32,000 bases of DNA from Acaryochloris marina S15 (GTDB taxonomy: Bacteria; Cyanobacteriota; Cyanobacteriia; Thermosynechococcales; Thermosynechococcaceae): assembly GCF_018336915.1 (NCBI RefSeq), contig NZ_CP064924.1, positions 180,001 through 212,000 of the forward strand. Direction: 5' to 3'. A program made the translations under genes and the position numbers. Within the stretch, counting starts at the first letter, position 1. Every line of letters starts with the position of its first letter. The notes below the pieces were generated by a model that did not search any database, was not told the DNA's origin, and saw only the letters and a list, made by a program, of their open reading frames with translations. This document shows, one piece after another, positions 17,409 to 28,569 of this stretch.

Positions 17409-20400
17409 ATGAAGACGATGCGGACCATAACGAGTGATTTAGTCTCCTATTACGAGGAAGATGAATCTCTCGTTGATGCTGTGGATCGCTACTATGGTCA
17501 GGCTGAAACAGTTTCTGAAGTGGACCGGATGACAACGGCCATCTGGGCGGGGTCGGCTTCAGTGGTCAAAAAGCTTAGTAAGCAGGTCAAACGTGAGGAT
17601 CTGAAGTCCTTGACGAGGGGCCTTATCCCCGCTTCTGCCAAAGGCATGGCGAAGGGTGCAGCCCAGAGGATTAGAGGCAAGAAACCTAATGCAGAAGACA
17701 GTGAACGTCTCGCCCATGACGTTACTTTGTCTGCGCCCAAAAGTGTGTCGATGGCCTTGCACTTGGAGGGGGATAACCGCTTATTCGATGCCCACATGGA
17801 GGCAGTTCTAGAAACTTTCGAGCTGCTTGAGCGGGAGTATGCCCAGTCTCGGATTCAGGTGAATGGAGTGCGCTCCGTCGTCAACACGGGCAACATGATT
17901 GCGGCATTGATTCCCCATCACACGTCCCGCGATGGCGATATGCAGCTGCACACCCACATGCTGATCATGAATGGGACGGAAGGGCCAGATGGTCAGTGGC
18001 GCTCCCTCTCCCATGAAAAGCTGGCAAAGGCTAAGTGGGTAGGAAGTTTCTACCGTCAGAAGTTAGCGGAGAAGGTGCAACGGCTGGGATATCGGATCTA
18101 TGAAACTAAACATGGGTTTGAGCTAGAGGGCTATAACCGTGCGGATGTCGAGGTCTTTTCCAAACGCCACCGGGCCATCGTCAAGGCGGTGATGGATGAG
18201 GGGCTAGCAGTCACTCCTCAGAATAAGAAGCAAAAGGTATTGACGACTCGCCAAGCCAAGCGGGGAGTGGGTAAAAAGCTGGAGACGATCCAAGACCATT
18301 GGCGAGAGGAAGCCCATTTTCAAGCTGTGGGGCATCCGGTATTGGCTGGACCTTTGGCAATGGTGTCAGATCCAGATAAAGCCAAGGTGGAGGTTGACAG
18401 TGCTATCCGTCATTTTTCTGAATGGTCATCCGTGTTCGAGCAAGATGACATCTATACCTACATCTTCAAGAACATCCGCCCCGAAGGCATGGCAATGGAA
18501 CAGGTTGATGAGGCCATTAGCCAAAGCAAGGAACTGATACCCGTCGATCGGGGATTCACCACAGTCACTGCCGTTGAAGAAGAAGCCCAGATCCATCAAC
18601 ACTGGATGGCAGGCCAAAGCCAAGCACAGCCAATGGTTTCTACCCCCTCCCTTGCAGGAATGGGAGTCAAGCTCAATGATGATCAGGCCAAAGCGGTACT
18701 CGGAACTCTAACGAGTACAGACCGTTATCAAATCTGGCAGGGCTTTCCAGGGGTCGGCAAGTCCAGAAGCTTAGGGGCTTTGAAAACGTTACTCGCTGCC
18801 TCGGGTCTTGTGATTCGGGGTTTTTCACCCACTATCCCCGCAGCGATAAACCTCCAAGATGAACTAGGGATTCCCACTAATACTGTCGAGCATTTAGTCA
18901 GGAGCCAGCCCAAGGCTGCATCCAAACAAGTCTGGCTCATTGATGAGTCTGGCATGATCAGCCGCAAACAGATGCTCAAGATCATGAATCATGCCGAACG
19001 CACGGGCGCTCGATTAGTGTTTGTTGGGGATAAAGGCCAGAACTCTGCCATCACTGCTGGTAGTCCTTTCAGGTTTATGCAACAGAATGGAGCCACGACT
19101 CACCGGATTGAGGAGATTGTTCGACAGAAAAATCCGGTACAGAAGCAAGCGGTTGAACTCATCTCTAATGGTCAAGGAGAAAAGGCTTTAGATCTCCTCA
19201 GTGCGAATGATTATGTGATCGACTTAGGGAGCAGGGGAGCTATCGTCAAAGCGGCAGCGGCCCAGTTCTTGGCTTTACCCCTCGCAGAACAAGACAAGAC
19301 TCTGATTGTCGCTGGGACCAATGAACAACGACTCGCCGCAGAAAAAGAGATTCGTAAGGGGGAAAAAGCAACCGGACGGCTAGGAGAATCTAGCAAAATC
19401 GTTCAGCTCTCCTCTCGGCACATGAGTATTGAGCAAAAACGTCGAGCGGATTGGTATCACCAGGGAGACTATCTCCGCTTGTTGCAAGACTACAAAAGCA
19501 CTGGCCTCACGAGAGGACAGCTCTACAAGGTAGAGAAACGCGAGGGTAAGGAACTGATCGTCTCTTCCTTAGGAGGTAGATTATATCGAGTCAATCCTGC
19601 CAAGTTCAAAGACAAAGAGGTTTACCATGCCCAAGAGTTTGATGTGGCCGTGGGTGACAAGCTCCGATGGACAACTACTATCCGGGAGAACAACTGGATC
19701 AACGGCCAGCAGCTCACGGTCACGGCCCTCGACAGCCTGAATATGTCGGTTGTAGATCGTGAGGGACGCTCTCATGATGTCCCCCTCACTCAACCTTTGG
19801 CCTTGGAATATGACCGAGTATGGACCTCGTATCGCTCCCAGAGTGCCACCAAGAAACGGACGATCATCATTGCAACGAATGACCGCACCTCTAACCAGGA
19901 GCCGTTCTGTGTTGATATTTCCCGCCAAGAAAGTGAACTGACGATCTACACGGAAGACCTTGGAAAACTCAGAGAGCGAGTCCAAGAATCCAATGCCCAA
20001 GAAAATGCTTTAAATCTCATTGAGGAAACCTATGGAAATCAACGAACAACTACAAGCGATCACGACCGCGATGACGGCCATGAGCGAACTTCAGCAACAA
20101 AACCAACAGTTGCTGACACAAAATCAAGAACAGATGACCGCCATTCAGCAGCAAAACCAGGAGCTGTTAGAAGAGAACAGAGAACTCAAGTCCCAGGTCC
20201 GGGAGAGAATCAACACCATCCCGATGGAGGTCAAACACGTTCTCAACACTTTCATCCAGGAATTCAAGGAGGCGATGGCGGCCAAGAAGCCCTCGGACAT
20301 GAGCGAGTCGATCAAGGAACTCGCCAAATCGATGGACAACTTGAAGATGAAAATAGAGGATACCAGCGTCTTGCAGATGACAATGGGCGACAAGGTGTTG

Positions 20401-23006
20401 GAAGCCGCAGAGGAGATCATGAAGGTCAAAAACAAGCTCCCCCGACACGCCCCACCCAAGACGGTCGTTCAACAGAATGGGAGCCAGCCCCCTCAGACTT
20501 AGCTAATTGGGTGATGCAGTGGTCTGAGGAGAATGAGCTATCAGCAAGTGGGTTGGAAAATCACTTGCTAGCCCTTGCTAATGATATAGAGTCACTCAGC
20601 CAAAGTCTGGAACCTGATTCCTTCAATGGTTTAGATGAGTTGGCAGATCTGGTCATTGAAAACCAGTTTGCTGATGCCCTCGCAGATAACCTCGCTCATA
20701 TAAGCCAATCTATCGATCACATTGATCAGGCCATAGAAAAGAACCTCAGCCAGCAGAGGATCGATAGCATTGCAGAGGCCGTGGTGGAGTGGCGAACCGG
20801 GCAGGAGTTAGCTGAGGCCGTTGCTGAAATAGCGGACATCGTTGCTCAATCGGATGGATTAGACCGGGGGATTCTCCGGTTGCTGGCTGGCTTGGAAGCG
20901 ACTCAATCTCTGGATGTAAAATTCCCCGCAATGGCTGAACTGGTCGATGCCGTCCAAGATTGGCAAACTGAGGTGGAGGTTTCCGCTGTCATTAGCGAGG
21001 TGAAGGACTGGGTTGAGAGTCTGACCATACCTCAATTTCCTGACATGGATAACCTGGCTCAGGATGTGCATGACCTCAATGAAGAACAAGCTTTGGCTGA
21101 GAGTGGTTTGGTTGAGCAGTTGGTTAGTCTGACGACTCAGATCAATGAGTTAGTTGAACCTCAGCAGATGGAGTTTGAGGGATTGGATCAGCTGACAGAT
21201 ATGGTGGTGGATCTGCAGCAAGGAGAAGACCTGGCTCTAGTCCAACCCCAGATCCAGGCCATCACCCAACAGATTGAAGCGTTCAACGACAGGCAACCCA
21301 CCTATTCGTTTGCCAAGATTAAGGAGCTGGCCGATACCGTCAATAAGTGGAGGGCACATGAATCCATTGCTCAGCACATTGGCGCACTCAATGATCTAAC
21401 CCTTCGCGCTCAAGGGAGTCTACATGAGTTCCCAGCCATGCAGCAGTTGGCCCAGGAAGTGCAATCCATGCGTGAGATTGACGCCCTTGCCAACGGGCCA
21501 GTCGCAGAACAGCTCCAAGATATTGCTCAGAAGTTGGCAGACAAGGGGATGAGTATCACGCCCAAGCCTAAGAAAATGATCCAGCCCAAGGCTAAGCCTA
21601 AGAGGCTCAAGGATCAGGTGTTTTGGCAACCGGACTATACGGGGGTTGAGCGGCCAGAACGTATTGATGAGAAACATTGGAATGAATGGGTGGATAGCTG
21701 CATTCATCCTGATGTGATCGCCGCTCGGTTGCAATCGATTAAGGGAGAACAGGTGATTGAGCGATTATTAGGGGCCAAGATTGAGGACATCGCCACTCGC
21801 AGAAAGGATGGATCTCTCAAGAAGGTTCGCAGCCAGTACCGGACTAAACCCATTCAATCGTTGATCGATGACCGTTCTCACCCTGATGTACTGAGCTATC
21901 AGGAGTTAGCGGATGGTGGAGGCTGGTGGTGTGATTCGGGGGTTAATCCGCTGTCCTTTGAAACGCTGGGACCGGATGAAAAACCCACCACCAGTCTATA
22001 TGGGACTTTTAAGCCCAACCCTAAAACCGCTCGATTAGATATCGACAAAACTCAGAAAGCAAGGAGAAAAGATCCCCAGGCTCCACCCCGCTATCGCAAG
22101 TACGAAAACCCAATGGGGCCAAAACGCGAACTGTTTGAGCGGGATATGGCATTCCAACCCATCCCTGATCACATTGCTCAGCAGATTCTTACCAAGTATG
22201 GAGTGATGCAAACCCAGGAGGAAAAAGCTAAAGGGTTCTGGTACACGGTGTACCAGCATCCAGAGATTCCCATCTACAGGACTGAAGGAGATAAGAAGGA
22301 TGCGGCATTAGTCTCTCAAGGTCGAGTGGTGATCGGTGGGCAAGGGGTGAATATTGGTTACCGGGCCAAGGACCAAAAAGACAACAGGTTGGAAAGACGG
22401 GTTCTGCATCCTCAGCTAGACGTGTTTGCGGTTCCAGGCAGAGAGTTCAGGTATGCCCATGACTGGGATTCTGAGCAATCTACGGTCTGGGATGTACGTC
22501 GAGAGATGGTTAGAGAGGCTGAGTTAATCGAAGAACAGGGCTGCAAAACATGGCGAATACCGTGGGATTCTGAACAGGGGAAAGGCGTTGATGACCTGAT
22601 TGGTAATCATGGCCCCATCGCCTTTGAGCGGGCAGACCAGAATGCCTATCCAATGGACCGGGAAATCAAGATGCATTACCGGGGGCAGTACACCCAAATC
22701 AAAAACAAATTAAGTCGGGAGAACCCACAGCACAACAATGATATTGCCATCTATCTCATCGCTCAAGGTGAGGGTGATGCAATGGATGGAACCAGAGTGC
22801 TGATGCAGTCTGATGCTGCTAGAGAACTGAAATCACCTGAAGATAAACAACGGTATATCCAGGGAGTGATTCACTTTACCCACTCATACCAGGACGCGCT
22901 ATACAAAGGACGTTCCACAAAAGTGTTTGAGCGCAGATTGTTCCTGCTCCAGCATAAATCTCAACCTACTCAAACTGTGAATCTGGATAAGGAACTGGAG
23001 ATGTGA
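17409..23006 (+). CDS. MOBF (TrwC/TraI-like) relaxase - RecD-like helicase - disordered linker - acidic repeat array - DUF3854/Toprim (CyRepA-like) domain; 1865 aa
   Basis: The relaxase histidine triad reads ALIPHHTSRDGDMQLHTHMLIMNGT. The helicase Walker A is GFPGVGKS and Walker B is VWLIDESGM. The C-terminal WWCDSGVNP...RKYENP...TEGDKKDAALVSQGRVVIGGQGV...HDWDSE...GKGVDDLIGNHG matches the Toprim-like DUF3854 pattern (EGxKKA ... DxD ... KGxDD). Confidence 0.9.
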   Translation: MKTMRTITSDLVSYYEEDESLVDAVDRYYGQAETVSEVDRMTTAIWAGSASVVKKLSKQVKREDLKSLTRGLIPASAKGMAKGAAQRIRGKKPNAEDSERLAHDVTLSAPKSVSMALHLEGDNRLFDAHMEAVLETFELLEREYAQSRIQVNGVRSVVNTGNMIAALIPHHTSRDGDMQLHTHMLIMNGTEGPDGQWRSLSHEKLAKAKWVGSFYRQKLAEKVQRLGYRIYETKHGFELEGYNRADVEVFSKRHRAIVKAVMDEGLAVTPQNKKQKVLTTRQAKRGVGKKLETIQDHWREEAHFQAVGHPVLAGPLAMVSDPDKAKVEVDSAIRHFSEWSSVFEQDDIYTYIFKNIRPEGMAMEQVDEAISQSKELIPVDRGFTTVTAVEEEAQIHQHWMAGQSQAQPMVSTPSLAGMGVKLNDDQAKAVLGTLTSTDRYQIWQGFPGVGKSRSLGALKTLLAASGLVIRGFSPTIPAAINLQDELGIPTNTVEHLVRSQPKAASKQVWLIDESGMISRKQMLKIMNHAERTGARLVFVGDKGQNSAITAGSPFRFMQQNGATTHRIEEIVRQKNPVQKQAVELISNGQGEKALDLLSANDYVIDLGSRGAIVKAAAAQFLALPLAEQDKTLIVAGTNEQRLAAEKEIRKGEKATGRLGESSKIVQLSSRHMSIEQKRRADWYHQGDYLRLLQDYKSTGLTRGQLYKVEKREGKELIVSSLGGRLYRVNPAKFKDKEVYHAQEFDVAVGDKLRWTTTIRENNWINGQQLTVTALDSLNMSVVDREGRSHDVPLTQPLALEYDRVWTSYRSQSATKKRTIIIATNDRTSNQEPFCVDISRQESELTIYTEDLGKLRERVQESNAQENALNLIEETYGNQRTTTSDHDRDDGHERTSATKPTVADTKSRTDDRHSAAKPGAVRREQRTQVPGPGENQHHPDGGQTRSQHFHPGIQGGDGGQEALGHERVDQGTRQIDGQLEDENRGYQRLADDNGRQGVGSRRGDHEGQKQAPPTRPTQDGRSTEWEPAPSDLANWVMQWSEENELSASGLENHLLALANDIESLSQSLEPDSFNGLDELADLVIENQFADALADNLAHISQSIDHIDQAIEKNLSQQRIDSIAEAVVEWRTGQELAEAVAEIADIVAQSDGLDRGILRLLAGLEATQSLDVKFPAMAELVDAVQDWQTEVEVSAVISEVKDWVESLTIPQFPDMDNLAQDVHDLNEEQALAESGLVEQLVSLTTQINELVEPQQMEFEGLDQLTDMVVDLQQGEDLALVQPQIQAITQQIEAFNDRQPTYSFAKIKELADTVNKWRAHESIAQHIGALNDLTLRAQGSLHEFPAMQQLAQEVQSMREIDALANGPVAEQLQDIAQKLADKGMSITPKPKKMIQPKAKPKRLKDQVFWQPDYTGVERPERIDEKHWNEWVDSCIHPDVIAARLQSIKGEQVIERLLGAKIEDIATRRKDGSLKKVRSQYRTKPIQSLIDDRSHPDVLSYQELADGGGWWCDSGVNPLSFETLGPDEKPTTSLYGTFKPNPKTARLDIDKTQKARRKDPQAPPRYRKYENPMGPKRELFERDMAFQPIPDHIAQQILTKYGVMQTQEEKAKGFWYTVYQHPEIPIYRTEGDKKDAALVSQGRVVIGGQGVNIGYRAKDQKDNRLERRVLHPQLDVFAVPGREFRYAHDWDSEQSTVWDVRREMVREAELIEEQGCKTWRIPWDSEQGKGVDDLIGNHGPIAFERADQNAYPMDREIKMHYRGQYTQIKNKLSRENPQHNNDIAIYLIAQGEGDAMDGTRVLMQSDAARELKSPEDKQRYIQGVIHFTHSYQDALYKGRSTKVFERRLFLLQHKSQPTQTVNLDKELEM
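20032..20502 (+). CDS. Embedded +1-frame ORF, 156-aa Q/E-rich coiled-coil protein, entirely inside the relaxase ORF
   Basis: GAGGA (20022-20026) lies 5 nt before ATG 20032. The translation is protein-like and the codon usage matches neighbouring genes, whereas the relaxase frame here is R/G/D/Q/H-rich with A-ending codons. See the corresponding finding. Confidence 0.55.
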   Translation: MEINEQLQAITTAMTAMSELQQQNQQLLTQNQEQMTAIQQQNQELLEENRELKSQVRERINTIPMEVKHVLNTFIQEFKEAMAAKKPSDMSESIKELAKSMDNLKMKIEDTSVLQMTMGDKVLEAAEEIMKVKNKLPRHAPPKTVVQQNGSQPPQT

Positions 23007-23018
23007 TCGGCAGGATAG

Positions 23019-24032
23019 CTAGAGGCTTTGACCTTGATCATGATTTGGGGCTTGCGTTCCCTGCTTCAAATCTAGACTTTCAGTGGTCAGGCTTTTCATC
23101 CGGGCACCTCTAACGACTATAGCCGCTGCCCGTACACCTTTTTCCTGTCCTTGCTCAGCCACAATTCCTCGAATAGTTGGATCATGCTTTAGCAACATTG
23201 ATTCAACCTTAGACTTGGCATACCCTGCCTTCAGTGCATTCTGGGCAACGAGGCCCGCCCCAATTAAGCCTGGCTGATCAACTTTAGATGAGAACTCGTT
23301 GTAGAGAGTTTGGCTGTCTTGTTCTTTGGATAGAGGGATATTGCTTGTACTCTGCTGCCGCTCATTCAAAAGTTGTTCTGCACCAAGATGTAGGGAGAGA
23401 ACAACATCCTCACCTTTATTGAAAAGACTCAGAACCTCATCCGTTGCAAAGGATGAACTGTACCGATCTACCAAATGATCTGGCTCCGAGGCAAACTGAT
23501 GAATGGCCTCTATCTGGTCATCCCGTAGTTGTGACCCATAATGATTCACCAGAAATTCAAGATCGTACAGATCCCGAGCCGCTGTTCGATGTTGGGCTGC
23601 TGATAACTTCTGATCAAATTGCTGCTCTATTCGGTAGGTCTTGATACCTGAGATTGTCTCAATGGCTTCAGACTGGGGGCTTTCCCGAAAGCTAGTCTCT
23701 ACCTTGAGTAACCTATCTTGCCCTGTAACCTGATCTAAATAATGAAGCTTGTACCGCTGGACAGTATCCGTATCTTTGACCAACTTTAGTGATTTCAATT
23801 CGATACCATTCACATTCCTAATGGCAGACTCAATTCGACCCTTGAGATTTAGCTTTTTTGTAGAGTCAAAATCTAAGTCCGTAGAATAGCGATCCAGGGC
23901 ACGAGTGAAGATGAGTGCCGCACCTCCCTTGAGGACATAAGGCGTATCACCGACTTGTTGAGCGACTGACCGCATCAAGTCCAAGTGGATGGACTGGGAA
24001 GGGTTTATACGAATTTCACGGTCTGAATCCAT
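23019..24032 (-). CDS. AbiEii/DUF1814-family nucleotidyltransferase (type IV TA / abortive-infection toxin) with a ~110-aa C-terminal extension
   Basis: YVLKGGAALIFTRALDRYSTDLDFDS (NTase GG..R.S.D.DF motif) and ..HRTAARDLYDLEFL.. are the hallmark AbiEii motifs. Residues ~226-337 lie beyond the usual domain. Confidence 0.8.
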   Translation of the reverse strand: MDSDREIRINPSQSIHLDLMRSVAQQVGDTPYVLKGGAALIFTRALDRYSTDLDFDSTKKLNLKGRIESAIRNVNGIELKSLKLVKDTDTVQRYKLHYLDQVTGQDRLLKVETSFRESPQSEAIETISGIKTYRIEQQFDQKLSAAQHRTAARDLYDLEFLVNHYGSQLRDDQIEAIHQFASEPDHLVDRYSSSFATDEVLSLFNKGEDVVLSLHLGAEQLLNERQQSTSNIPLSKEQDSQTLYNEFSSKVDQPGLIGAGLVAQNALKAGYAKSKVESMLLKHDPTIRGIVAEQGQEKGVRAAAIVVRGARMKSLTTESLDLKQGTQAPNHDQGQSL

Positions 24033-24547
24033 TGCTTAAAAATTCTGAGGGGTTCACCTGATAGTTGGATTGCCAAGCGTTCTAAGTACTCTCGTTTGAG
24101 GTGATCAACTTGCTCTTCCGTATCCAGCCAACTATTGATTGCCGCATTGTCTGCAATACTCGGTACTTTGGATTTCTGGAGATCCAGCATCGCTAAGTCT
24201 GCGATAGCCCGATAATGATTGGCGACATATATAGGTTGATCCGAGGGAATGGATAATCCTTCCTGAAACAAAATTGAAGACATATCTCGCACTCCCTGAT
24301 GACCTAGGGAAGGCGTTGTATCAACCTGCTGACCCTTTCCAGCAAGGGGGATGCTCTTTTGAGTTGTTAGGGCATCCGTTTGTTCAAAAAAGTAGGGCTG
24401 AAAATGCCAATCCCCCGTGTCTTCATCTGGGAAACGAAGGTTGAGTGCATGTTTGAACGAGATATACCGCTCCAGGGTCGTCTCAGGAATCGGCACTGGA
24501 CGTAACAGAACTTCTTTTAAATCTTGGGTGGGAGAAAGCTCGTTCAT
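24005..24547 (-). CDS. Hypothetical 180-aa protein, candidate cognate partner (antitoxin position) of the AbiEii-like gene
   Basis: It lies immediately upstream of the NTase gene and overlaps it by 28 nt. I saw no AbiEi-like winged HTH. Confidence 0.5.
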   Translation of the reverse strand: MNELSPTQDLKEVLLRPVPIPETTLERYISFKHALNLRFPDEDTGDWHFQPYFFEQTDALTTQKSIPLAGKGQQVDTTPSLGHQGVRDMSSILFQEGLSIPSDQPIYVANHYRAIADLAMLDLQKSKVPSIADNAAINSWLDTEEQVDHLKREYLERLAIQLSGEPLRIFKQWIQTVKFV

Positions 24548-26850: not shown

Positions 26851-28569
26851 TTATACAGAATCTACTGCTGCTTTCCGTTCGCTCAGAGTTTCCGATTTAT
26901 GGAGCTTCTCTAACTCAGCCCCCGTGGGTAACATCGACTCTGCAATGTCCGCACGTTCACTGACGACGTATTCTGGTGTGATGCCTAGATCTCTCGACTG
27001 GCGACAGTACAGCAGAAACGGGTGGATGTGAGAGTACCAAAGCGTTTTATTCTCTTCTCTCAAGGCTTCATCGTTTTTGTTGAGTGGAACTTTCAGGCGA
27101 TGTGCCCGTTGCTTCCAACCAGGGGATTGGATTAGACATTCTCCAGGTTCAAATGTATCAATCTCATCTGCTGTGATAAGTGGGACTTTGCGATGTTGCT
27201 CGGAGCGGTTGCGACTACTGCCTGAACGACTGTTATGCCCCGTGGAGCGGGTCTTGTAGACTTCCGTGAAAGTCCCTAGGGAGTCGCTCAAGCTCTTATC
27301 AGTGGAATGATGGCCTGTGCGAAAGTGGATTCTCGTGCCAAGAGAACTGAGAATTGACATGGCATGGTCCCTTGTATACCTCAAGTTGATCTGAGCATCA
27401 CTCTGATAGGACAGGAGACAGCACATTCCATACTCTCGGTACAAGTTAATCCACCGCTCAATATCTGGCAGACGAATTGAGGTGAATTCATCCAAGCATA
27501 GAAACAGAGGCCGATCCCGACTCACTTCTGCGTTCAGGTTGTGCCGCATCAACATATGAATGACTGCGGCACATAAGGGCGAGGTCGTACTCTCAGCGTT
27601 CTCATCAATTTGCACCCATACGATCTGTTTACCTGGGAGGTCCAGTGGAATCGTGGAGCTGGTAATAGAAGGGATAACACTGGCATCCATCAGCGCTTGG
27701 AAGTTCGTAACCGCTGTGCCCACAATCCCCCCAGCGGTTTTCTCTGCTTTGGAGACGGACCTTAAACCCAGTGCCGCTTGGTTAGCCCAAAAGTCTAAGT
27801 CACCCTCTAAGTCAAATTGACCATATTGGTGGGCCGCGAGTAGCCGTTGGGGAAGGTCTTCTAAGCTGAGGAATCCCCAGGCTGAGACGAGATCTTGATA
27901 GACATGGCTTTTGGCGAGTAGGAAGACGGTCTTGAGCAAGCTATCGCCTTGGGGACCAAAGAACCCATCTTTGCGACTTCCCGGTACTTCAAAGTTAGCG
28001 TTGATGGTCTTTGCAAGTTCCAGGGCTTCTTTTGAGCCACCCCGTTCTGGAATGAAGTCTAGGAGATTGAGGCTATCCGTGTGAGCTTTGCCAGGACAGA
28101 AAAAATACTGCTGATACCCCAATCGTTGGGCAAGGGCGGCATGTCGCTTTTGCAAGCTTCCTTTGATGTCGTAGATGATGGCTGTGAAGCCTTGGCGAAG
28201 GATATCATCAATACAATTTTCGACGACACTTTTGGTCTTGCCATAGCCACTCGCTCCAATCACGCTAATTCCAGGCTGGCAGTCCGTGAGGATGAGCTTC
28301 CGATCACTCCCCAGGCTCAAGGAGCATCCATCTACTGTGGCATCTCGGATCTGTTTGAGTCCTCGCCATCGGGCTTTGCGAATTTCTCCAGGGGTGGCAA
28401 ATCGGGCATCGCGTTTACTCCGTCCATGACCATTCTTGCTGTCAAGGATAGTCGCAAGGAGGAGGAGGAACCCGATCATGCCCAAGAGCCAGGGCAAGGG
28501 ACTGCTCAACAACGGCCCCAGATCCACGGGGGGCTGTGTGGGTTGAGGTTGATTTGTCTGGGTTTGCAT
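26851..28569 (-). CDS. Type IV secretion coupling protein (VirD4/TraG/TraD family ATPase)
   Basis: An N-terminal TM segment (LPWLLGMIGFLLLLATIL) is followed by Walker A VIGASGYGKTKS and Walker B-like PLFLCLDEFTS. The length and layout are typical of T4CPs. Confidence 0.88.
   Translation of the reverse strand: MQTQTNQPQPTQPPVDLGPLLSSPLPWLLGMIGFLLLLATILDSKNGHGRSKRDARFATPGEIRKARWRGLKQIRDATVDGCSLSLGSDRKLILTDCQPGISVIGASGYGKTKSVVENCIDDILRQGFTAIIYDIKGSLQKRHAALAQRLGYQQYFFCPGKAHTDSLNLLDFIPERGGSKEALELAKTINANFEVPGSRKDGFFGPQGDSLLKTVFLLAKSHVYQDLVSAWGFLSLEDLPQRLLAAHQYGQFDLEGDLDFWANQAALGLRSVSKAEKTAGGIVGTAVTNFQALMDASVIPSITSSTIPLDLPGKQIVWVQIDENAESTTSPLCAAVIHMLMRHNLNAEVSRDRPLFLCLDEFTSIRLPDIERWINLYREYGMCCLLSYQSDAQINLRYTRDHAMSILSSLGTRIHFRTGHHSTDKSLSDSLGTFTEVYKTRSTGHNSRSGSSRNRSEQHRKVPLITADEIDTFEPGECLIQSPGWKQRAHRLKVPLNKNDEALREENKTLWYSHIHPFLLYCRQSRDLGITPEYVVSERADIAESMLPTGAELEKLHKSETLSERKAAVDSV

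Follow-up and report, generated by a model that had tools for sequence, protein, structure and literature searches.

The 32,000-nucleotide (nt) stretch of the Acaryochloris marina S15 contig NZ_CP064924.1 analyzed here (positions 180,001 to 212,000; the window) carries a gene for a MobF-family relaxase, and inside this gene lies a second open reading frame (ORF), read from the same strand in the +1 frame (Table 1). The product of the relaxase gene, which we call the host gene, is 100% identical in a protein search to the 1862-amino-acid (aa) NCBI entry "MobF family relaxase [Acaryochloris marina]" (P0003). Its N-terminal TrwC domain, followed by a TraI-type superfamily 1 (SF1) helicase (PF08751, PF13604, PF22232), identifies it as a relaxase of the MOBF (TrwC/TraI) group. 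A BLASTP comparison of host residues 1-885 with residues 1-854 of a Nostoc relaxase extends the conserved helicase region to host aa ~874 (nt 20030). The segment that comes next, read in the relaxase frame, encodes a string rich in R, G, D, Q, H, and T (80% R/G/D/Q/H/T/P/S/E and 9% hydrophobic residues), and it is followed by helical repeats and a DUF3854 domain. Comparison with related plasmids indicates that both frames of this segment are kept by selection, and we consider it highly probable that positions 20032-20502 are dual-coding and specify a separate nested product.

A reading made earlier from the sequence of the window without database searches (the sequence-only reading) had proposed an overprinted gene here, and its observations were reproduced: the bounds of the +1 frame, which is closed by the TAG at 20500-20502, the spacing of the GAGGA, the ATG at 20032, the 156 codons, and the codon counts that follow. 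The relaxase ORF contains zero stops across the nested segment. Only 10 of the 156 nested codons (6.4%) end in T, versus 28% in the reference genes of the window, and none of the 52 nested codons that precede AA, AG, or GA ends in T, where about 10 would be expected. The 18 relaxase-frame Arg codons of the segment comprise six AGA, four CGA, five CGC, and three CGT; CGG, the commonest Arg codon of the relaxase flanks, is absent. A occupies 70 of the 157 relaxase-frame third positions. A codon log-odds scan trained on the other genes of the window, a check that the sequence-only reading had suggested, ranks the +1 frame best for windows starting at ~19930-20200 and frame 0 best elsewhere.

The closest DNA relatives of the host gene are the mobF genes of the Acaryochloris plasmids pREB1, pREB3, pMB01, and pMB03 (75-78% DNA identity); that of pREB6 is distant. 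In all five plasmids, a +1 stretch of 157-171 codons is open at the homologous place, and the relaxase frame is open as well. The +1 proteins of the close relatives are 85-89% identical to that of the window over residues 53-156, which is above the DNA identity, and the relaxase-frame peptides are far less similar. In the comparison with pREB6, the +1 proteins align at 34% identity and the relaxase-frame peptides barely align. These relaxase genes contain further +1 ORFs of 70 codons or more, which were considered and set aside as junk-like and not conserved.

Beyond Acaryochloris, a search of 1.84 billion representative proteins with the nested protein returned 12 matches (E down to 2e-18, 29-42% identity). 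The frames were judged where DNA was fetched: in six metagenome lineages (L039-L041 and L045-L047), the +1 ORF sits within an extended open frame that either carries on from a helicase C-terminus or leads into a DUF3854 protein. Nostoc mobF genes also proved to contain nested +1 ORFs when searched with a profile built from the Acaryochloris proteins, and tBLASTn located the nested ORF in 17 plasmids of this genus, where the annotated feature is almost always mobF or a relaxase fragment; at every fetched Nostoc locus, it is in frame +1. The members thus found span two cyanobacterial orders, have nested ORFs of 110-171 codons, and share the motif F[IL]xQ[FL]xExLxx[KQ]K[SP]SxMxE.I..L.KA[ML]. Protein similarity in the +1 frame reaches down to about 20-30% identity. 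A scan of genome contigs with the relaxase alignment yielded only the known A. marina plasmids and two unrelated fragments of metagenome-assembled genomes.

The sequence-only reading had suggested looking for a stand-alone copy of the gene elsewhere, and one such lineage was found, on three contigs (L042-L044), where the other frames are closed and the protein begins at the equivalent ATG. Three further candidates, which came from the profile search, were rejected: L048 has a 1-nt break of the relaxase frame just upstream, and over the nested gene that frame remains open; L049 is an ordinary nested case; and the contig of L050 is riddled with indels. By these comparisons, only L042-L044 stand as a true stand-alone copy, and the family to which the nested protein belongs is a real one, found nested in two cyanobacterial orders and once as a separate gene.

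The family has largely escaped annotation. At every intact RefSeq relaxase locus examined, the PGAP/RefSeq annotation omits the nested ORF, and copies have been called only in broken relaxase genes, at a frame-broken locus, or on short contigs. Our final profile search recovered 23 called proteins, none meaningfully named; those on long contigs are nested or lie in frame-broken relaxase genes. Decayed or interrupted relaxase copies occur in Acaryochloris sp. CCMEE 5410 (L006), Nostoc sp. C057 p057_J (L034), Nostoc UHCC 0870 (L032), L033, and L048, the causes being several frame breaks, an insertion of IS1380, or a 1-nt break immediately 5' of the nested segment. Such loci are also the source of the only nested-family proteins that NCBI annotates (P0002 and P0090). 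Where decay is heavy, as in L006 and L034, the nested ORF is broken too.

To compare the constraint on the two frames, we aligned the window and four close relatives by relaxase protein. Differences at relaxase codon positions 1, 2, and 3 are 0.118, 0.080, and 0.335 in the upstream flank and 0.231, 0.148, and 0.413 in the downstream flank, the normal pattern of relaxase coding. In the nested segment they are 0.216, 0.091, and 0.034, which is the order of third over first over second position in the +1 frame. The same order was found in the Nostoc and metagenomic sets, where identity is 0.62 and 0.32 in the nested frame and 0.49 and 0.21 in the relaxase frame; these alignments were guided by the nested protein, which slightly biases them in favor of its frame.

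Stops in homologous plasmids were the observation by which the sequence-only reading had proposed to judge dual coding. No stop interrupts the relaxase frame across the nested segment in any of the 19 nested members, where synonymous resampling with host codon usage predicts 3.5-15. Resampling was done for 17 of the 19 members, two contigs being too short for a codon-usage reference; an open relaxase frame has a probability of ≤2e-4 in 16 of those tested, L047 (0.015) being the exception. The equivalent of the relaxase frame in the stand-alone L042 contains six stops. For the window, when the nested ORF is resampled synonymously according to local codon usage, the relaxase frame acquires 9-10 stops on average and none of 20000 trials is stop-free, and 25 single-base changes that are synonymous in the nested frame would each create a relaxase-frame stop. 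Shuffling the T-poor synonymous codons of each nested ORF among themselves gives P = 0.026 for the window and is significant in 12 of 13 lineages (Fisher combined p 2.7e-16); these lineages are related, but synonymous sites are saturated at the distances involved. Every member is interrupted by stops in each of the three antisense frames and has 7-19 in the third sense frame.

Two explanations that the sequence-only reading had itself offered are excluded by these results: low T content alone does not survive the own-codon shuffles, and compensating frameshifts or indels are incompatible with more than 20 independent assemblies that are alike in their frames and have +1 stops just before the ATG and at the end. 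Its central proposal of an overprinted gene with both frames held open by selection is borne out by conservation in the +1 frame, +1 periodicity, and avoidance of relaxase-frame stops. On this evidence, both frames are kept by selection, with amino-acid constraint mainly on the nested frame and the relaxase frame mainly constrained to stay open.

Table 1. Features of the relaxase gene, the nested gene, and the transfer locus in the window
Feature	Position	Strand	Details and basis
Host MobF-family relaxase gene	17409..23006	+	1865 aa + stop, 5598 nt; ORF list, translation, Pfam, protein search
TrwC relaxase domain, host aa 10-303	17436..18317	+	Pfam PF08751, E = 1.8e-61
AAA_30 / TraI-type helicase core, host aa 421-603	18669..19217	+	Pfam PF13604, E = 2.8e-51
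+1-frame TAA, 6 codons upstream of nested ATG	20011..20013	+	Sequence
Shine-Dalgarno-like GAGGA, 5 nt before ATG 20032	20022..20026	+	Sequence
Relaxase-frame reading of nested segment, host aa 875-1032	20031..20504	+	Translation, composition, comparison
Nested gene, frame +1 of relaxase, 156 codons + TAG	20032..20502	+	ORF list, comparative tests
Helical-repeat region, host aa ~1033-1390	20505..21578	+	Translation; Nostoc comparison
DUF3854 domain, host aa 1610-1736	22236..22616	+	Pfam PF12965, E = 9.8e-41
Type IV coupling protein gene (TraG/TrwB-like)	26851..28569	-	Pfam PF02534, PF10412, PF12696

The start region of the nested gene has conserved features. Almost every nested member has GGAG, GAGG, or AGGA 5-9 nt before its ATG, and a +1-frame stop lies 4-24 codons upstream of the ATG in all members. 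The 60-nt window around ATG 20032 is at the 98th percentile for weak structure at the locus, and relative to local windows, 12 of 13 members rank at the 89th-100th percentile in the corresponding region, in part owing to its A-rich composition. From the conserved Shine-Dalgarno (SD) motif and ATG, the upstream stop, and the unstructured start region, we suggest that translation may be initiated independently at ATG 20032.

The protein of the window has a calculated isoelectric point (pI) of 5.3, and all members are acidic (pI 4.4-5.3). From an alignment of 11 sequences, AlphaFold2 predicts two long helices (residues 2-84 and 87-135) and a disordered Pro/Gln-rich tail (mean predicted local distance difference test [pLDDT] score 77; predicted template modeling [pTM] score 0.40). 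Searches with the nested protein of Pfam, NCBIfam, and a PDB sequence profile, and with Foldseek of the PDB, gave no significant match. Weak coiled-coil matches (ALMT, CCDC90, and SHE3) were dismissed as compositional.

The position of the nested gene within the host differs between genera. The window type has the order relaxase-helicase, nested segment, helical repeats, DUF3854, and the Nostoc type has the order relaxase-helicase, DUF3854, nested segment, helical repeats, as judged for the repeats by comparing 20505-21578 of the window with host aa 1422-2142 of L025 (Nostoc punctiforme pNPUN01). In both, the nested gene is directly 5' of the helical-repeat module. The nested gene and the repeats keep together, and their place relative to DUF3854 has changed; in effect, modules have been permuted within a single relaxase family.

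The surroundings of the host gene are those of a conjugative plasmid. A ParM-like gene lies upstream and a gene for a type IV coupling protein downstream, and the latter marks the locus as a conjugative transfer region. Adjoining the 3' end of the relaxase gene, in convergent orientation, is a gene for an AbiEii-family nucleotidyltransferase toxin (23019-24032, minus strand), overlapped by a 180-aa ORF (24005-24547, minus strand) that has no Pfam hit and may be an AbiEi-type partner. An AbiEii gene is also found near the relaxase locus of pMB01.

We propose that ribosomes translating the relaxase would read the segment in frame 0, so that a disordered linker of low complexity would connect the TrwC relaxase-helicase portion of the protein with its helical repeats and DUF3854 domain, and that other ribosomes would start at the internal GAGGA and ATG 20032 and produce, in the +1 frame, a separate acidic two-helix protein of 156 aa. 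By analogy with MobB and TraH, the most likely role of this product would be that of an accessory factor in the relaxosome or in DNA transfer, made in cis with the relaxase, and it may bind the helical-repeat module encoded directly downstream. If the segment is dual-coding, we regard the chances of a relaxosome or transfer accessory role, argued by analogy, as about evenly balanced.

Three other explanations of the open +1 frame were weighed. The one that fares best, although we judge it improbable, is that only the +1 frame is functional, so that the locus encodes three products, namely a relaxase-helicase, the small protein, and a repeat/DUF3854 protein with a start of its own (for example, at GTG 20511 or ATG 20514), with the relaxase frame open for reasons other than protein coding, such as the avoidance of polarity. 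The poor conservation and low complexity of the relaxase-frame peptide are in keeping with this idea. So is the division of the relaxase into mobF and DUF3854 genes in some plasmids (L031), but there the division falls at another point, and the DUF3854 gene still contains the nested ORF in frame +1. The relaxase-frame GTG-ATG at 20511-20516, 8-11 nt past the nested stop, recalls the restart of repB' after mobB in RSF1010 (PMC2200642). It is conserved only in the closest Acaryochloris group, however, and not in pREB6, the metagenomic members, or Nostoc, and a separate C-terminal protein restarting at either codon is therefore not supported. Selection for read-through would be expected to leave just such an avoidance of stops as is seen across 110-170 codons in the 19 members, and because the relaxase frame has no stop, ribosomes translating the helicase must read through the segment, so that the fused protein would be made regardless.

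Programmed frameshifting, which we consider very unlikely, would make the +1 frame part of the relaxase itself. A fraction of the ribosomes, after a +1 shift near 20014-20031, would terminate at TAG 20500 and release a shortened relaxase-helicase with the coiled coil at its C-terminus, and a second shift back would give a relaxase that carries the coiled coil; the +1 frame is, after all, the selected frame in the segment. It also speaks for this reading that an SD-like element just 5' of the shift site stimulates +1 shifting in prfB. Instead of a slippery or hungry-codon site, though, it is the SD motif and ATG that are conserved, with a stop 4-24 codons before that ATG in every member. Inspection of 20010-20034 (TTA AAT CTC ATT GAG GAA ACC TAT GGA) revealed no CUU-UGA-like or X XXY YYZ motif, no dedicated site search having been made. 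A double shift would also make the very strong avoidance of relaxase-frame stops needless, and the stand-alone homologue in L042 begins at the equivalent ATG. One database protein, the 263-aa P0069 from a metagenome, does run from the helicase C-terminus in the relaxase frame into the nested frame and is the only hint of a fusion product. As a chimera from a single metagenome record, it is most simply explained by an indel.

An origin of the open +1 frame in sequencing indels, in the A-rich and T-poor composition of the linker, or in an antisense gene is hardly credible and is refuted by the comparison with relatives: the composition is unusual (AT skew 0.37-0.42), 18% of synonymous resamplings of the fixed relaxase peptide leave the +1 frame open, and antisense ORFs of 101-104 aa lie at 20145-20472, but independent sequences from different projects have the same frames, the +1 proteins are similar at 18-40% identity with the shared motif and at E values that stand out against so large a protein database, periodicity follows the +1 frame, shuffling of its own codons rejects a purely compositional cause, and the antisense and third sense frames are closed in all members.

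Antisense ORFs of 101-139 aa are present in or next to the segment on the minus strand (19581-20000, 20145-20459, and 20167-20472), and one of those in the window shares third positions with the nested frame. Their equivalents are occasionally called by metagenome gene callers on short contigs (L007-L011). Because every antisense frame has stops in relatives, we rejected an antisense gene at 20145-20472 and regard the antisense ORFs inside the segment as by-products of the skewed composition.

Several points weigh against dual coding with a transfer function. The case for separate expression of either product of the segment comes from sequence, and the SD motif is weaker in L038, L033, and L005. 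The nested protein resembles no characterized protein in sequence or fold, and its function is argued from analogy with MobB and TraH. The nested gene is also not universal: other cyanobacterial MobF/DUF3854 relaxases (L017-L023 and L026-L029), among them those of the short Acaryochloris type, pCC7120gamma, pNPUN03, Crocosphaera, and PCC 7002, do not have it, so it is dispensable for some systems. Finally, DUF3854 lies on different sides of the nested gene in Acaryochloris and Nostoc, and the analogy with the linker that houses mobB therefore holds only in part.

Nesting within a relaxase gene has precedents. In RSF1010, mobB lies inside mobA/repB and is translated in another frame (PMC2200642), and in RP4, traI contains, in a different frame, the gene for the acidic protein TraH, which stabilizes the TraI-TraJ-oriT relaxosome (PMC7314908). 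The loci of Acaryochloris, Nostoc, and the metagenomes alike have this arrangement, an ORF wholly inside a relaxase ORF on the same strand and in a different frame. The likeness to RSF1010 and R1162 (MOBQ) goes beyond a small accessory gene wholly within the relaxase gene (PMC2200642): in both, the host is a relaxase fused to a C-terminal module of replication or priming type, and the Acaryochloris nested gene lies between the two. The host here, however, is a MOBF TrwC-helicase relaxase with DUF3854 rather than a MOBQ relaxase-primase, and in Nostoc the nested gene comes after the DUF3854 module. Moreover, the role of MobB in the relaxosome has been established experimentally, whereas the nested product is so far known as a predicted protein. 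With traH of RP4 (IncP, MOBP), the nested proteins share their acidity, but the two hosts belong to different relaxase families, no homology is detectable, and the role proposed here remains conjectural. Since no significant match was found in the domain and structure searches, we do not file the nested protein as a member of the MobB or TraH family; the likeness is one of arrangement and not of direct sequence comparison.

The segment can also be set beside the long same-strand overlaps of viruses and a few bacteria. As in those, one gene lies entirely within the other over a long stretch, a structured protein in one frame is paired with a disordered peptide of skewed composition in the other, and stops are avoided in both. 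Unlike in those cases, the nested frame is here the more conserved and has a stand-alone homologue (L042), and the overlap is conserved across two cyanobacterial orders instead of being restricted to a lineage.

The stand-alone homologue bears on how the overlap arose. The sequence-only reading had listed an ancestral gene fusion as an alternative to overprinting; with L042-L044 at hand, fusion is a plausible origin but not a rival to dual coding at present. One possible, though rather unlikely, history is that the gene for the small helical protein came first and was later overprinted by the relaxase-frame linker. A stand-alone gene would once have stood between genes for the relaxase-helicase and the helical repeats, its -1 frame would have been cleared of stops, fusing the flanking proteins without destroying it, and the nested gene and the repeats would then have moved as a unit.

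On the metagenome contig L042, the stand-alone homologue adjoins, in convergent orientation, a gene of another relaxase lineage (L042:1790-5014, minus strand). This gene contains a different +1 nested ORF of 240 aa (L042:2551-3273, minus strand), which was not detected by the nested-family profile. The N-terminal part of its product is a Gln-rich coiled coil, and a hydrophobic, transmembrane-like segment lies at the C-terminus; the fraction of T-ending codons is 0.067, and the relaxase frame there is a P/E/R/D-rich low-complexity linker. This second ORF hints that relaxase linkers may be a recurrent nursery or shelter for hidden genes.

With mobB (MOBQ) and traH (MOBP) known for decades, the arrangement is not new in kind. 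What is new, as far as these comparisons reach, is a protein family in MOBF relaxases of cyanobacteria that is unannotated at the intact RefSeq loci examined and has no homology to known proteins; a literature search, limited in coverage, found no paper describing it. It is a protein family missed where standard annotation passes over a nested ORF. Long overlapping genes proposed for bacteria are often contested, and the present case, with complete nesting over 110-170 codons, conservation to about 20-30% identity in two orders, and comparisons that are unusually clear, is useful for that reason. The stand-alone relative provides a natural control and lets the direction of overprinting be tested.

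To our knowledge, the transfer of cyanobacterial megaplasmids is almost unstudied. The nested gene offers a concrete candidate factor for this process, and changes that would separate the functions of the two frames exist: T20033C is synonymous in the relaxase (TAT>TAC) and replaces the nested start codon (ATG>ACG), and T20111A is likewise synonymous in the relaxase (GTT>GTA) and introduces a nested stop (TTG>TAG). The family would extend the mobB and traH precedents to MOBF relaxases, and we suggest that an accessory factor hidden in a relaxase linker may be a general way of keeping two genes together.

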